The position numbers and the translations under genes were made by a program. Below, piece by piece: positions 20,620 through 24,395 of a stretch of DNA of 38,872 nt (position 1 is its first letter; every line of letters begins with the position of its first letter). Origin of the DNA: an archaeon (lineage in GTDB: Archaea > Nanobdellota > Nanobdellia > Pacearchaeales > GW2011-AR1); the NCBI GenBank assembly GCA_027341315.1, contig DAIENA010000001.1:1-38872 (forward strand), written 5' to 3'. The notes under the pieces were generated by a model. It had not been told where the DNA came from, did not search any database, and saw only the letters and a program-made list of their open reading frames with translations.

Positions 20620-21036
20620 ATGGTCAACACAATTGATATGCAGGACTTAAGAAGACTCGCTCTCTTTAGAAAAATTACAAGACTTGAAACAAGATATTGT
20701 TTTAGTTATAATGAGATATTAATGTTTTGTGTTCCAAAAAGAGAAGTTTCAATCGCTCTTGGAAGAAACGGAGAAAATCTTAAAAGAATGTCGGATATAT
20801 TAAAAAAAAGAGTTAGAATTATTCCGCTTCCAAACGGAATTAACGACGCGAAATCGTTTATACAAGCCGTTATTGCTCCAGTCGGATTTACCGGAATCGA
20901 AATCACGCCTGATGAAATCGTCGTCAACGCCGGCTCCGAAAATAAGGCGGCGCTTCTTGGACGAAACAAACGGCGATTCCTTGAAATGAAAAAAATCGTT
21001 AAAGATTTTTTTAGACTTGAATACAGAATTATTTAA
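20620..21036 (+). CDS. nusA: Archaeal NusA-like transcription termination/antitermination factor (two KH domains)
   Basis: 138 aa in the typical position between rpoA and rps12, with KH-like GRNGENLKRMSDIL and LLGRNKRRFLEMKKIV. Confidence 0.8.
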   Translation: MVNTIDMQDLRRLALFRKITRLETRYCFSYNEILMFCVPKREVSIALGRNGENLKRMSDILKKRVRIIPLPNGINDAKSFIQAVIAPVGFTGIEITPDEIVVNAGSENKAALLGRNKRRFLEMKKIVKDFFRLEYRII

Positions 21037-21361
21037 CTTTTTTTTCGAGAACCGAATTAATTACGTCTGAATATTCTTTATAAGATTCTTTTATACAATT
21101 TTTTACAGATTCTGGATTGTGAGGAAATTCTTGAATAAATTCTGATTCGGTAATAAATCCGTAATATTTTTTATTTTTGTTTCTATCGCTTACGTCTATG
21201 ACGTCGACGTAACACTCGTCTACATTAACATTTTTTACAATGGCGGGATGATAATCAAACTCAATTTCTCTCGCAACAACTTCCCAAACCAAATCTCCGG
21301 GCTTTATACCTTCAAACCTTGCTTTTTGCTTTTGATAATTGTTTTTGGTTAATAGTTCCAT
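21029..21361 (-). CDS. Hypothetical protein (110 aa), opposite strand, convergent with nusA (8-nt overlap)
   Basis: Intact ORF. PGDLVWEVVAREIEFDYHPAIV resembles the first strands of Tudor/PWWP-type SH3-like barrels (weak, by eye). Confidence 0.45.
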   Translation of the reverse strand: MELLTKNNYQKQKARFEGIKPGDLVWEVVAREIEFDYHPAIVKNVNVDECYVDVIDVSDRNKNKKYYGFITESEFIQEFPHNPESVKNCIKESYKEYSDVINSVLEKKVK

Positions 21362-21470
21362 AAATATAATTTTCGATTAAATTATTAAATATTTTTACAA
21401 AGAAAAGTATATTTCAAAAAACGAAATTTATTAAAACTCTTTAGTTCTTTAGTCTTTATATGGGTTTTAA

Positions 21471-21782
21471 ATGAAAAAAATTATCAACAATTATTCTTCA
21501 CAGGTAATTTACCGCGGAGAAAAAAAGGAACTTGAAAATATTTTGAAGATTCTCTGCCAAAATTTAGGCACTGGTTTTGAAGAGCAAATATCAGTTTTTT
21601 CAAAGGAAGATAAAAAAATAGAAAGTCCAGACCAAAGAATATATTACAATCTTGAAAGAATTCTTTATATTTCAAACTCATCGAAGCCGAAATTTTTATT
21701 TCCGATAATTCTAAAAATTTCCAAAAAGGCCGATGAGAAATTTTCTGAAAAATACGGGAAAATTGACATGATTGAGAAATAA
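21471..21782 (+). CDS. Hypothetical protein (103 aa)
   Basis: ORF only; no motif recognised. Confidence 0.4.
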   Translation: MKKIINNYSSQVIYRGEKKELENILKILCQNLGTGFEEQISVFSKEDKKIESPDQRIYYNLERILYISNSSKPKFLFPIILKISKKADEKFSEKYGKIDMIEK

Positions 21783-21873: not shown

Positions 21874-22296
21874 ATGGGATTGAAAAGTGCATTCAAAAAA
21901 GTGAAAGACCGGAAGAAATTCCGATGGAAAGACAGAGCTTACAAAGTTCACACTCTTGACCTTTTTGCTAAGTCTGACCCACTTGGCGGAGCCAATCAGG
22001 CAAAGGGAATTGTTCTTTCAAAATTTCAAAAAGAAGCAAGACAGCCAAACTCCGCGATGAGAAAATGCTGCAGAGTTCAGCTGACAAAAAATGGAAAGAC
22101 CGTCGGTGTTTTTATTCCCGGAAACCTCGCGCAGAAATTTATCGACGAGCACGACGAAGTTATGATTGAAAGAATCGGCGGGAAACAGGGAAAAAGTAAA
22201 GGCGACATGCCCGGAATTCGATATCAAATTATAAAAGTAAATGATCAACCATTGCAAAGACTTGTAAGAGGGAAGATACAAAAAGGTAGAAGATAA
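21874..22296 (+). CDS. rps12: 30S ribosomal protein uS12
   Basis: [27 protein letters not shown] and [15 protein letters not shown] are hallmark archaeal S12 segments. Confidence 0.95.
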
Positions 22297-22297
22297 A

Positions 22298-22597
22298 ATG
22301 GAAAAAACTTTTGAATTCAGTGATGAAAAATATTATGGACAGGTTATTCCTTATATGGAAAAAAAATTTCCCGGCTTAACAGGGAGTAAACTGGAAGATT
22401 TTTATTATGTTCCTGCTGGAGCCAGTGTGGGTCACGATTTAAAAGACGGAACTAAGGCTCTTATTGGTAAAGCAATACATTCCCGCGTTCAGGTAAAAGT
22501 TTTCTCCGACGACGAAGAGTTATTTAAAGAGTTAGGGGAATTAGAAAAACTTACGTCGACGACCGGACGAAACGGCGGGACGGGGACGGGAAATTAA
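22298..22597 (+). CDS. Small hypothetical protein sORF-A (99 aa), paralogue of sORF-B
   Basis: Starts 1 nt after the rps12 stop. The N-terminus TFEFSDEKYYGQVIPYMEKKF matches sORF-B EFQFLREAYYRQVIPLLEEYF. Gly/Thr-rich C-terminal tail. Confidence 0.6.
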   Translation: MEKTFEFSDEKYYGQVIPYMEKKFPGLTGSKLEDFYYVPAGASVGHDLKDGTKALIGKAIHSRVQVKVFSDDEELFKELGELEKLTSTTGRNGGTGTGN

Positions 22598-22907
22598 AAT
22601 GACAGAAGAGTTTCAATTTTTAAGAGAAGCGTATTATAGGCAAGTTATTCCTTTATTGGAAGAATATTTTTCTGATAAAGAACTTGGAAAGAAAATTTTA
22701 GCAGATAAGTCTTTACACAATTTAGATAATCTTGCAATGATTTATAATGATTTTTTTAATGAAAATAAGGGAGAAATATTAATAATTACTCCTTCAAAAA
22801 TATCTCCTGAAAAATTTGTTTTGGTGGTTACCTCGAAAGATGAAAAATTAATGAAAGGATTAGAAAAATTATCAATGGGGGAAGTAGGAAATTAAAATGA
22901 CAGAAGA
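22589..22907 (+). repeat. Perfect 21-bp direct repeat GGAAATTAAAATGACAGAAGA at 22589-22609 and 22887-22907, bracketing sORF-B
   Basis: Read directly. The copies are exactly 298 bp apart. Each spans a stop codon, the 1-nt spacer and the first four codons (MTEE) of the next gene. Confidence 0.9.
22599..22895 (+). CDS. Small hypothetical protein sORF-B (98 aa), paralogue of sORF-A
   Basis: Starts 1 nt after the sORF-A stop and ends 1 nt before the rps7 ATG. Begins MTEE, as rps7 does. Confidence 0.6.
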   Translation: MTEEFQFLREAYYRQVIPLLEEYFSDKELGKKILADKSLHNLDNLAMIYNDFFNENKGEILIITPSKISPEKFVLVVTSKDEKLMKGLEKLSMGEVGN

Positions 22908-23529
22908 ACAAGAAATAAAAACTGAAGGTAAAAAATTGAATTTCAAGATTTTTGATATGTGGGACATTTCAGAAATAAAAGTTGAAGATCCTGGATTAAG
23001 AGGGATTATTAACCTTGAACCAAAATTAATTTTGAAATCCGAAGGAAGAAACGTCGTTAAACACGGACAGACGCGGGTGAATATCGTTGAGAGACTTATG
23101 AATAAAATCGCGCTTACCGGACACCGAGGGAAAAAACACAAAATTGAAGTTGGAAGAGCGACCGGAAAATATTCACGAAATATGAAAATTGTTATCGAGG
23201 CTCTTCAGGCCGTCGAGAAAAAAACCGGAAAAAATCCGGTCGAAGTTTTGGTTCGTGCGATTGAAAAAATTTCTCCAAGGGACGAAACAACAATAATTGA
23301 ATACGGCGGTGCAAGATATCCTCAAGCAGTCGACGTTTCGCCAATACGACGTGTTAACCTTGCTTTAAGAAATCTTGTTCACGGCGCAAGCGACAAATCG
23401 TTCGGGAAAAAGAAAAAACTTTCGCAGTCACTTGCTGACGAAATAATTCTCGCCTACGAAGAAAACGGGGAAAGTTCTGCCCTGAAAAAGAAAAAAGAAG
23501 CCGAGGCGCAGGCAGACAGCGCAAGATAA
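22897..23529 (+). CDS. rps7: 30S ribosomal protein uS7
   Basis: IVERLMNKIALTGH, NPVEVLVRAIEKISPRDETTIIEYGGARYPQAVDVSPIRRVNLALRNL is the archaeal S7 pattern. Confidence 0.95.
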   Translation: MTEEQEIKTEGKKLNFKIFDMWDISEIKVEDPGLRGIINLEPKLILKSEGRNVVKHGQTRVNIVERLMNKIALTGHRGKKHKIEVGRATGKYSRNMKIVIEALQAVEKKTGKNPVEVLVRAIEKISPRDETTIIEYGGARYPQAVDVSPIRRVNLALRNLVHGASDKSFGKKKKLSQSLADEIILAYEENGESSALKKKKEAEAQADSAR

Positions 23530-23588: not shown

Positions 23589-24059
23589 ATGACAGATTTT
23601 GATGAACTCAAAGAAAGTTTAGAAAGAGATTACTCGACGGGCGACGCGGTGCATAAAATGATTACCGACGAATTGTTTGAGGATATCAGAGTAAAAGAGA
23701 AGAAACTTGAAAATATAGTTTCTAATGAGTTCAAGAGATTAATAGAAATTCCAAACATGATAATTCCTCCCCGTAAAAATAAAGGCGAAATGCCTCAAAT
23801 ATTGGAATACAAGGTTTCTTACAATAAAGAATTAAAAGATTTTGAAATAAAAATAACAAAAATGAAACTTCCAAACGGAAAAGTAATGGACGACAATAAA
23901 TACGCGTCGAGAACTTACGGATGTCCGCACGATTATACGTTTCCGATTTGCGGAATAAACGGAGAAGTCAGCAACATTGTAAAAGAATTCAAAATAAAGT
24001 ACAACGTCCGGGGAATAAAAAATGTCAACCACAACTGTTTTCACGAGATAAAGAAATAA
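23589..24059 (+). CDS. Hypothetical protein (156 aa) with a Cys/His-containing C-terminal region
   Basis: ORF with its own TATA box. The C-terminus YGCPHDYTFPICG...HNCFHE could bind metal (speculative). Confidence 0.5.
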   Translation: MTDFDELKESLERDYSTGDAVHKMITDELFEDIRVKEKKLENIVSNEFKRLIEIPNMIIPPRKNKGEMPQILEYKVSYNKELKDFEIKITKMKLPNGKVMDDNKYASRTYGCPHDYTFPICGINGEVSNIVKEFKIKYNVRGIKNVNHNCFHEIKK

Positions 24060-24107
24060 TTCTGGTTTTTTCGAAAAATATATATAGAAAAATAACTTGC
24101 TTTCACC

Positions 24108-24395
24108 ATGTATGATGAATTGGTAAAAGAAATGCTGAACAAGGGAAAGAAACAGTCTCTTGAAACAATTGATGGGATAGAAAGAATTCTTAAAAGTCAA
24201 TATGGAAGTATTGAGGGAAATGGGGTTCTAAAACCGGACAAGAACTTAAATGAGAATTATAATCTTTTAATAAATGCCCTCGGAAATTATAAAAAATCAA
24301 TAATTAATTTTTGGAATTCGCAAAAGAAAAAAATATCAGGACTTGGCATTCTTGAAACCGTCGTTTCAGAAAATTCCAAAAAAAGAAAAAAATAA
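24108..24395 (+). CDS. Hypothetical protein (95 aa)
   Basis: ORF only. Confidence 0.4.
   Translation: MYDELVKEMLNKGKKQSLETIDGIERILKSQYGSIEGNGVLKPDKNLNENYNLLINALGNYKKSIINFWNSQKKKISGLGILETVVSENSKKRKK

Follow-up and report, generated by a model that had tools for sequence, protein, structure and literature searches.

A perfectly repeated stop/start joint around a small gene between rps12 and rps7 of a DPANN-type archaeon as the probable footprint of a tandem duplication

How does a small gene come to lie immediately upstream of the ribosomal protein gene rps7, bracketed by two perfect copies of the same 21-bp sequence? This question is raised by a 38,872-nucleotide (nt) stretch of DNA, referred to here as the window, which is part of a fragmented 0.58-Mb metagenome bin (582,626 bp, 65 contigs) of a DPANN-type archaeon; relatives of its small proteins carry the NCBI labels Pacearchaeota or Nanoarchaeota. 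The repeated sequence, GGAAATTAAAATGACAGAAGA, occurs on the + strand at positions 22589-22609 and 22887-22907 with 0 mismatches, and exactly two copies are present in the window. They flank sORF-B, the second of two small open reading frames (sORFs) that separate rps12 from rps7. It is probable that the 21-mer is a stop/start joint that was copied in an unequal, tandem-type duplication, and that this event placed a second member of a small protein family between the first sORF (sORF-A) and rps7.

The spacing of the two copies is 298 bp, which corresponds to sORF-B (297 nt including the stop) plus a 1-nt spacer. Each copy reads as the last two codons of the upstream gene (GGA AAT, Gly-Asn) and its stop TAA, a spacer A, and the start and a further 2 2/3 codons of the next gene (ATG ACA GAA GA). 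The first 11 nt of sORF-B are those of the rps7 start, ATGACAGAAGA; sORF-B uses GAG and rps7 uses GAA as codon 4, and both proteins start with MTEE. A preliminary description of the locus had claimed that a perfect repeat brackets sORF-B, that sORF-B and rps7 begin identically, and that part of the sequence is shared by the joint between rpoB and the following sORF-1. Both copies proved to be exact; the identical MTEE beginning was borne out when the codons were read, with the repeat itself ending two-thirds of the way into codon 4; and the shared 11-mer, TAAAATGACAG, is present at the rpoB/sORF-1 joint and has 6 occurrences in the genome. The features concerned are the following.

21874..22296, + strand: rps12, ribosomal protein S12, 140 aa (Pfam PF00164, E 2e-37).
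22298..22597, + strand: sORF-A, 99 aa, by family alignment the first-position member of a small lineage-specific family, with the ancestral N-terminus MEKTF retained.
22331..22369, + strand: diverged in-register repeat in sORF-A (region of the YYGQVIPY motif), with its partner in sORF-B at 22632-22670; 39 nt, 77% identity, spacing 301, found by repeat search.
22550..22594, + strand: G+C-rich, slippage-prone tail of sORF-A, TSTTGRNGGTGTGN, with 60% GC (GC 0.60) against 34% GC in the region; left edge of the 21-mer repeat.
22589..22609, + strand: 21-mer copy 1, the sORF-A/sORF-B joint.
22599..22895, + strand: sORF-B, 98 aa, probably the duplicated family member; codons 1-4 (MTEE) would derive from rps7; from codon 5 onwards its body shows homology to sORF-A.
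22887..22907, + strand: 21-mer copy 2, the sORF-B/rps7 joint, the last 15 nt of which (TAAAATGACAGAAGA) equal the genus-ancestral rps12/rps7 joint.
22897..23529, + strand: rps7, ribosomal protein S7, 210 aa, start MTEEQE (Pfam PF00177, E 2e-33).

The three joints of this region (rps12/sORF-A, sORF-A/sORF-B and sORF-B/rps7) all consist of a stop, a 1-nt spacer and ATG. The 3′ end of rps12 reads ...GGTAGAAGATAA and is followed by the spacer and the sORF-A start, the whole joint being AGAAGATAAAATGG. To judge how much of the repeat is commonplace, a list was made of all sites in the genome at which the end of one open reading frame (ORF) meets the start of another, each of at least 50 codons. The commonest joint type was the ATGA overlap (88 cases), followed by the 1-nt spacer (67 cases, with the stop TAA in 64 and the spacer A in 60). 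TAAAATG is the standard joint of this genome, and 58 such joints are flanked on both sides by ORFs of at least 50 codons. Seven of the 21 bases of the repeat (TAAAATG) are generic, and the other 14 match far beyond chance. With position-specific base frequencies from the 58 joints, the chance that two joints are identical over 21 nt is P = 4e-6, giving 0.007 expected identical pairs genome-wide; a more conservative empirical estimate, based on 1 identical pair among 1636 non-adjacent joint pairs, gives about 0.01 expected among the 17 adjacent pairs. No further site within 3 mismatches of the 21-mer was found in the window (0.02 expected from shuffles), and the whole 582,626-bp genome holds no third copy, the nearest other site having 4 mismatches. 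The preliminary description had named a coupling signal common to many unrelated junctions as the alternative to be feared; the genome-wide search shows that this applies to the 7-nt core only.

These figures bear on the view that nothing was copied and that both joints independently reached an optimal re-initiation sequence, made up of a Shine-Dalgarno (SD)-like GGA, TAAAATG, ACA as second codon and A-rich codons. The 58 joints are A-rich on either side and often have ACx as second codon; the 21-mer lies close to their consensus at almost every position, and starts of the form MT(N/E/K) often follow TAAA (15 of 58). In addition, a metagenome scan found the 21-mer in 22 unrelated contigs, either as a stop/start joint or as a ribosome-binding site (RBS) plus start. 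About 15 of these loci represent one unrelated conserved gene pair, in which a protein ending in ...YNRGN is followed by one beginning with MTEEIKDV...; the rest are RBS-plus-start contexts, and none of the 22 lies at rps12/rps7. The metagenome occurrences show that, in AT-rich genomes at large, the 21-mer is a favorable setting for initiation, which is no proof that both copies at this locus are independent. Convergence nevertheless appears very improbable. In the position-specific model the second joint equals the first with P of about 1e-5, the identity ends exactly where the homology of sORF-B to sORF-A begins, and neither the joints of a tandem family pair in genome G011 nor orthologous joints are identical. 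As a separate observation, the roughly 15 contigs with the unrelated gene pair (L032-L052; ...SQYNRGN, stop, MTEEIKDVN...) carry the 21-mer as a joint that is conserved while its flanks vary. PHROGs gave no clear identity for this pair, with weak head-protein matches only.

The evidence that favors a duplication comes from the comparison of the two sORFs. A phmmer search within the ORF set of the genome relates sORF-A to sORF-B with an E value of 1e-3, and the DNA of the gene bodies outside the repeat aligns with z = 7.4, a score reached by 0 of 300 shuffles. The protein alignment contains 29 identical residues out of 89 (amino-acid identity 30-34%), while the DNA identity is approximately 51% and third positions are identical at a frequency of 0.45. 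The homology runs in register from codon 5, where sORF-A has TTT GAA TTC and sORF-B has TTT CAA TTT. Codons 1-4 differ: sORF-A has MEKT (ATG GAA AAA ACT), and sORF-B has the ATG ACA GAA GA of rps7.

The wider family indicates which ends are old. A search of 1.84 billion representative proteins yielded no more than 11 members, and each one with a readable genomic context (P0016, P0017, P0018 and P0020 not being in that set) sits in the slot between rps12 and rps7. The members besides sORF-A and sORF-B (G007, G011, L070, L073, L076 and P0016 to P0020) start with MEK(T/N)F and end with ...LEK(I/L)S(K/M)GE..N before the stop. Since they start like sORF-A and end like sORF-B, sORF-A has retained the N-terminus of the family and sORF-B its C-terminus. 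The closest relative of sORF-A is P0017 (45% identity), and the tail of P0018, GHGDGTGTGGEVN followed by the stop, unites the terminal GGTGTGN of sORF-A with the terminal GEVGN of sORF-B.

The slot was surveyed in 30 loci from the genus, family and order, with the own genome counted. It was empty in 15, contained a 57-bp hairpin insert only in 2, one small ORF in 8 and two small ORFs in 3 (the own genome, G007 and G011); 2 loci were left unresolved. The one-ORF loci hold several unrelated sORF families. A single family copy in the order rps12/family/rps7 is found on L076, and G007 and L070/L073 have one family copy each. In the empty slots of G005, G009 and G022 the rps12/rps7 joint is GATAAAATGACAGAAGAA, also written AGAAGATAAAATGACAGAAGAA, and it is similar in G021 and G012. 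The presence of ATGACAGAAGA at these empty sites indicates that it is the ancestral rps7 start and was not brought by sORF-B. In three species the rps12/rps7 joint is identical over 18 nt, whereas third positions are otherwise only about 50% identical. In a tree built on S12 and S7, the three genus genomes with the family fall into one eight-species clade (96/85) alongside species without it; gains and losses are therefore frequent.

On this basis, the simplest history of sORF-B would be as follows. The ancestor would have had the order rps12/family/rps7, as L076 still does. An unequal illegitimate exchange, with one breakpoint after nt 11 of rps7 and the other before codon 5 of the sORF, would have duplicated the unit from sORF-A codon 5 to rps7 nucleotide 11 (codon 4). 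The product, sORF-B, would then consist of rps7 codons 1-4 (ATG ACA GAA GA), a body like that of sORF-A and the family tail (..GGA AAT TAA), and the sORF-A/sORF-B joint would be a copy of the old sORF/rps7 joint. A single unequal exchange of this kind would account at once for the repeat period and the homology of the two sORFs, for the chimeric start and for the place where the repeat ends on the right. The right-hand edge would lie where it does because beyond it sORF-B and rps7 were never homologous, and the left-hand edge because the tail of sORF-A is G+C-rich, slippage-prone and indel-variable between strains. We infer the recombination mechanism from this arrangement.

Tandem gene duplication by unequal or illegitimate recombination, leaving a chimeric junction, is an established general mechanism. 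The locus resembles it in that adjacent units are homologous in register, the period is one unit with a chimeric junction at which the second copy starts with the sequence of the downstream neighbor (rps7 codons 1-4), and relatives retain the single-copy state. It differs from ordinary cases in that the copies look ancient, at 30-34% amino-acid identity, and yet the 21-nt joint is perfect, and in that the event took place inside the near-universal rps12-rps7 pair with the 1-nt stop/start spacing preserved on both sides. The repeat on its own is an ordinary duplication footprint and the mechanism is known; the rps12-rps7 setting with a perfectly preserved joint is neat, and not surprising to a specialist.

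The preliminary description had listed unequal recombination, tandem duplication and an insertion with target-site duplication as possible sources of the repeat, and had pointed to related genomes as the place to look. The first two are upheld by the in-register homology from codon 5, by the ancestral rps7 start in sORF-B and by relatives that have 0, 1 or 2 small genes in the slot, including a single family copy. The third has no support: neither terminal inverted repeats nor a transposase are present, and in all contexts that could be read the family is confined to this slot. A mobile origin would mean that sORF-B came from elsewhere and was inserted at the sORF-A/rps7 joint with a 21-bp target-site duplication, or that a small circle carrying one joint was integrated by recombination. 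Direct repeats that flank exactly one gene unit fit this idea, as do the turnover of slot content between species with several unrelated sORF families, the unusually low G+C content at third codon positions (GC3) of sORF-B, and the sharing of another 21-mer by two unrelated joints around non-homologous sORFs on contigs C5 and C22 of this genome. To these may be added an unrelated 100-aa sORF (MAQTID..., the Q-sORF), whose DNA is 92-96% identical between L070 and L073 compared with 65-80% in the flanking genes. We consider such an origin quite unlikely, however. Homology in register with the adjacent sORF-A from codon 5 is predicted by duplication and not by a random cassette; neither transposase or integrase domains (Pfam, NCBIfam, PHROGs) nor a structured attC-like site were found; and the family, for which the PHROGs search gave no match, has 11 members and is confined in readable contexts to the rps12/rps7 slot.

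The Q-sORF lies between rps12 and the family gene in Pacearchaeota contigs, at L070:2197-2499 and L073:2197-2499. Its identity between the two, seen against that of its flanks, suggests that a slot gene was recently exchanged across species by recombination.

That the arrangement is an artefact, with one small gene expanded by the assembler or two strains joined in error, is effectively excluded. The bin is a fragmented one of 65 contigs, and contig L058 stops exactly at the first 21-mer. On the other hand, five contigs, drawn from different samples and built by different assemblers (Logan SRR22746128, ERZ27237183, GCA_027332305.1, ERZ27236928 and SRR33468571), each about 99% identical to the window, all have the order S12-A-B-S7, and four of the five span both repeat copies with both 21-mers unchanged. 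Moreover, at about 51% DNA identity sORF-A and sORF-B are not collapsed or expanded copies of one sequence. A CAG/CGG indel and substitutions in the sORF-A tail distinguish these nearly identical strains. Between the window and L053-L058, sORF-A differs by a 12-nt tandem insertion right after the ATG (22300-22312; GAAAAAATTATT before GAAAAAACTTTT) and by a 3-nt indel in the G-rich tail (22572). Both ends of sORF-A are slippage-prone.

Several observations weigh against a simple duplication. Among identical residues of sORF-A and sORF-B, the same codon is used at just 63%, a value that falls within the 47-73% seen for orthologues across species. The bodies of the two genes are as diverged as species-level orthologues, and their synonymous sites are saturated. 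Because of this saturation, an old duplication alone does not account for 21 identical positions out of 21. The preliminary description had reasoned that the identity of the joint must be either recent, through conversion, or selected, and the saturation of synonymous sites lends weight to that reasoning. The base composition of the two genes also differs, with sORF-B being very AT-rich (GC 0.26; GC3 0.17, compared with 0.33 in sORF-A). In terms of phylogeny, sORF-A and sORF-B are sisters in a tree of 8 family sequences (74/81); in a tree of 12 sequences, however, sORF-A groups with P0017 (74/76) and not with sORF-B, which sits on a long branch. The sister topology is not rejected on the 12 sequences (approximately unbiased (AU) test, p = 0.33), and the sequences are short and fast-evolving, so the order of duplication and speciation is not fixed by the tree. 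Finally, joints are not generally immutable: orthologous joints drift across the species of the genus, the Rrp41/Rrp42 joint varies in spacing and flanks, and the family/rps7 joints differ among L070, L073, L076 and G011.

A two-step origin would meet the first of these difficulties. A whole-gene tandem duplication would have occurred through generic TAAAATG joints, both copies at first starting with MEKT; later, a short-patch conversion or template switch would have copied the sORF-B/rps7 joint onto the sORF-A/sORF-B joint. Such a conversion, overwriting the first codons of sORF-B with MTEE, would explain why the 21 nt are still perfect when the gene bodies are saturated at synonymous sites. 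It would be in keeping with short perfect or near-perfect blocks in other diverged tandem paralogues (S1/S3, 26 nt exact; C22 X1/X2, 41 nt with 1 mismatch; C33, 93 nt exact), and with the drift of orthologous joints across species, which makes selection alone seem insufficient. However, it requires two events where one suffices, and a conversion tract would find no anchor on the right, as sORF-B and rps7 share no homology beyond GAAGA. Homologous recombination would also have had to work with a short patch of 21 nt and an anchor of 13 nt, and in the G011 tandem pair the joints were not homogenised. For these reasons we regard a two-step origin as unlikely.

If the 21-mer was copied together with sORF-B in one duplication, as we favor, its perfection calls for an extra cause. 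Purifying selection may hold the re-initiation joint constant, short-patch conversion may renew it, or both may act; or else the unequal exchange may have been recent and have involved an allele that had already diverged, which would fit the low GC3 of sORF-B. Selection on joints is favored by the 18-nt conservation of the rps12/rps7 joint, by an sORF/Rrp41 joint (TTAAATTAAAATGACA) that is common to this genome (G000) and G009, by the lack of structure at the joints and by an enrichment of SD-like motifs. The joint RNAs are unstructured: a minimum free energy of 0 kcal/mol with z +1.6 was obtained for one, and a z of -0.17 for the other, neither folding better than shuffles. The motifs GGAG and AGGA are enriched at -20 to -13. 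The 16S 3′ end was sought in order to define the anti-SD, and the bin was found to contain no rRNA; the GGA and the G-runs may be called SD-like from the positional GGAG/AGGA enrichment. The two tandem family genes of G011, which have dissimilar joints, count against selection being sufficient.

If the joints are functional, each copy of the 21-mer would act as a termination-reinitiation joint, made up of TAA, one spacer base and ATG, with G-rich, SD-like codons ahead of it and A-rich codons free of structure after it, and the joints would chain rps12, sORF-A, sORF-B and rps7 translationally. Stop-start distances of -8 to +10 nt have been reported to predict termination-reinitiation (PMC10666635), and the upstream gene's final 15 nt are enough for coupling (PMC6728339). 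By the spacing rule of the former work, in which stop and start overlap or lie within about 10 nt, the 1 nt found at each of the three joints (S12/A, A/B and B/S7) leads us to predict translational coupling across them. Like the pairs studied by Huber et al. (2019, PMC6728339; 2023, PMC10666635), the genes are co-directional, stop and start are a few nt apart (here +1), the signal would lie in the last codons of the upstream gene, and the motif is genome-wide (about 60 joints here). In those pairs the dominant spacings are -4 and -1, whereas here +1 (TAAAATG) is nearly as common as -4. A further difference is that the duplicated joint itself is the point of interest at this locus, where coupling is read from sequence.

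Lineage-restricted genes in operons have been described before. Price, Arkin and Alm (2006, PMC1480536) found that E. coli ORFans are mostly appended downstream of native operon genes. The sORFs studied here are similarly small, lineage-restricted genes without homologues that use the promoter of native genes, and their content varies among close relatives; they differ in lying between two essential ribosomal protein genes for which translational chaining is predicted, and in that the new copy would come from local duplication. The locus offers a clean, datable example of an extra cistron added inside the highly conserved rps12-rps7 pair without disturbing the pair. If the copied piece took in the joint together with the opening codons of the essential rps7, every cistron would have kept a working initiation context. 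Other joints of this genome look similar, and they suggest that the core-operon joints of these reduced archaea serve as nurseries in which small genes arise and evolve fast. Annotators may take it as a warning that mini-genes of this sort are genuine and that a repeated joint does not betray a faulty assembly.

In E. coli, the str operon is autoregulated by S7 at the rpsL-rpsG intercistronic region, a structured RNA of about 100 nt. The same gene pair is concerned here, and in both cases the region just upstream of the rps7 start would be functionally important. In contrast to E. coli, the spacer of the joint here is a single nt and no structure is predicted for it.

No curated family was found to match sORF-A or sORF-B (best E 0.05 in Pfam and 0.03 in NCBIfam; none in PHROGs). 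A PDB sequence profile search gave a best E of 0.18, and Foldseek against PDB a best E of 0.02 with TM at most 0.5, neither being significant. The AlphaFold model of sORF-A is a small alpha/beta domain of the order beta-alpha-alpha-beta-beta-beta-alpha (pLDDT 78). Between the family orthologues of L070 and L073, identity by codon position is 0.87/0.87/0.66; as third positions change fastest, the family is protein-coding and under constraint. An ORF at G000:C64:22618-22833 has an N-terminal motif, FSLEENKYYGQVIPLI, that is nearly identical to that of sORF-A and sORF-B, while its remainder is different, and it may be a third, partial paralogue. An origin of the sORFs as decayed partial copies of the core genes beside them was rejected: sORF-A and sORF-B have no DNA similarity to rps12 or rps7, and two sORFs between the exosome genes Rrp4 and Rrp41 on contig C5 have none to those genes.

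Across the genome, TAAAATG joints with a single gene between them resemble each other more than random joint pairs do (mean 7.41 compared with 5.71 of the 14 non-generic positions; permutation p = 0.0007). At least 9 of the 14 positions match in 35% of the gene-bracketing pairs and in 9% of random pairs, and the top cases bracket sORFs of 87-98 aa. The two C5 sORFs (93 and 92 aa; G000:C5:4154-4715, locus L077/L080) occupy a slot in which 15 of 19 relatives have nothing. An exact repeat of 16 bp, AAATTAAAATGACAAA, brackets the second sORF, whereas the first overlaps Rrp4 by ATGA and starts with MTEK, which according to the relatives is the ancestral Rrp41 start. In G013, the sORF in the rps12/rps7 slot likewise starts with the old rps7 start (ATGACAGAA), and rps7 itself now starts with ATGGCAGAA. 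Together, the G013 sORF and the first C5 sORF indicate that borrowing of the downstream gene's start recurs.

A second pair of joints with an identical 21-mer, TTAAATTAAAATGACAAATAA, is located at G000:C5:4707-4727 and, on the minus strand, at G000:C22:11136-11156; chance expectation is far below 1 pair. The sORFs that these joints follow were considered as homologues and rejected, as they are not homologous. On the minus strand of the same contig (G000:C22:10730-11712), the tandem paralogues X1 and X2 share 41 nt from the ATG with 1 mismatch inside otherwise diverged genes, and on C33 a 93-nt exact repeat (G000:C33:21640-21732 and 22268-22360) comprises a TAAAATG joint and 25 codons. These near-perfect 5′ islands in tandem paralogues may reflect short-patch conversion in the genome. 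The Rrp41/Rrp42 joint is a further hot spot, with inserts of 237-362 bp in 4 of 20 genus genomes (L082, L084, L090 and L096, from G012, G009, G008 and G014).

These patterns invite a bolder reading, to which we give only a slim chance, namely that the joint module (...AAT TAA A ATG ACA...), beyond its part as a coupling signal, is a portable docking site whose direct repeats would allow mini-cistrons to be excised, re-inserted and exchanged between strains and core-operon junctions while the chaining is kept. It could draw on the likeness of adjacent joints, the identical 21-mer of C5 and C22, the rapid turnover of the slot and the apparent lateral exchange of the slot gene between L070 and L073. 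If true, DPANN archaea would possess a cassette system that resembles integrons and needs no enzyme.

The hairpin insert noted in the slot survey is a conserved element of about 57 bp between rps12 and the next gene (L002:1419-1500 in G022; also L006 in G011 and L021 in G004). Within it lies a hairpin of 8-10 bp (CGAAGATT...AATCTTCG), and on either side the rps12 3′ end recurs as a direct repeat of 13 bp (AAGGGTAGAAGAT); the gene downstream of the insert retains a copy of the old upstream context. It was considered as a multi-copy miniature inverted-repeat transposable element (MITE) with target-site duplication, and this was rejected because it is single-copy in each genome.

Within the window, the archaeal rpo/str cluster has the following order: rpoH, rpoB, four small ORFs, an unsplit rpoA, a gene of the PEP-utilising type, nusA, rps12, sORF-A, sORF-B and rps7, with EF-2 further on. 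Extra hypothetical ORFs are located at 21029-21782 and 23589-24395, and the nearly identical strain contig L053 differs at both places. In L053, nusA lies just 117 nt upstream of rps12, and a Q_salvage gene lies downstream of rps7. Accessory gene content around the conserved core varies from strain to strain.

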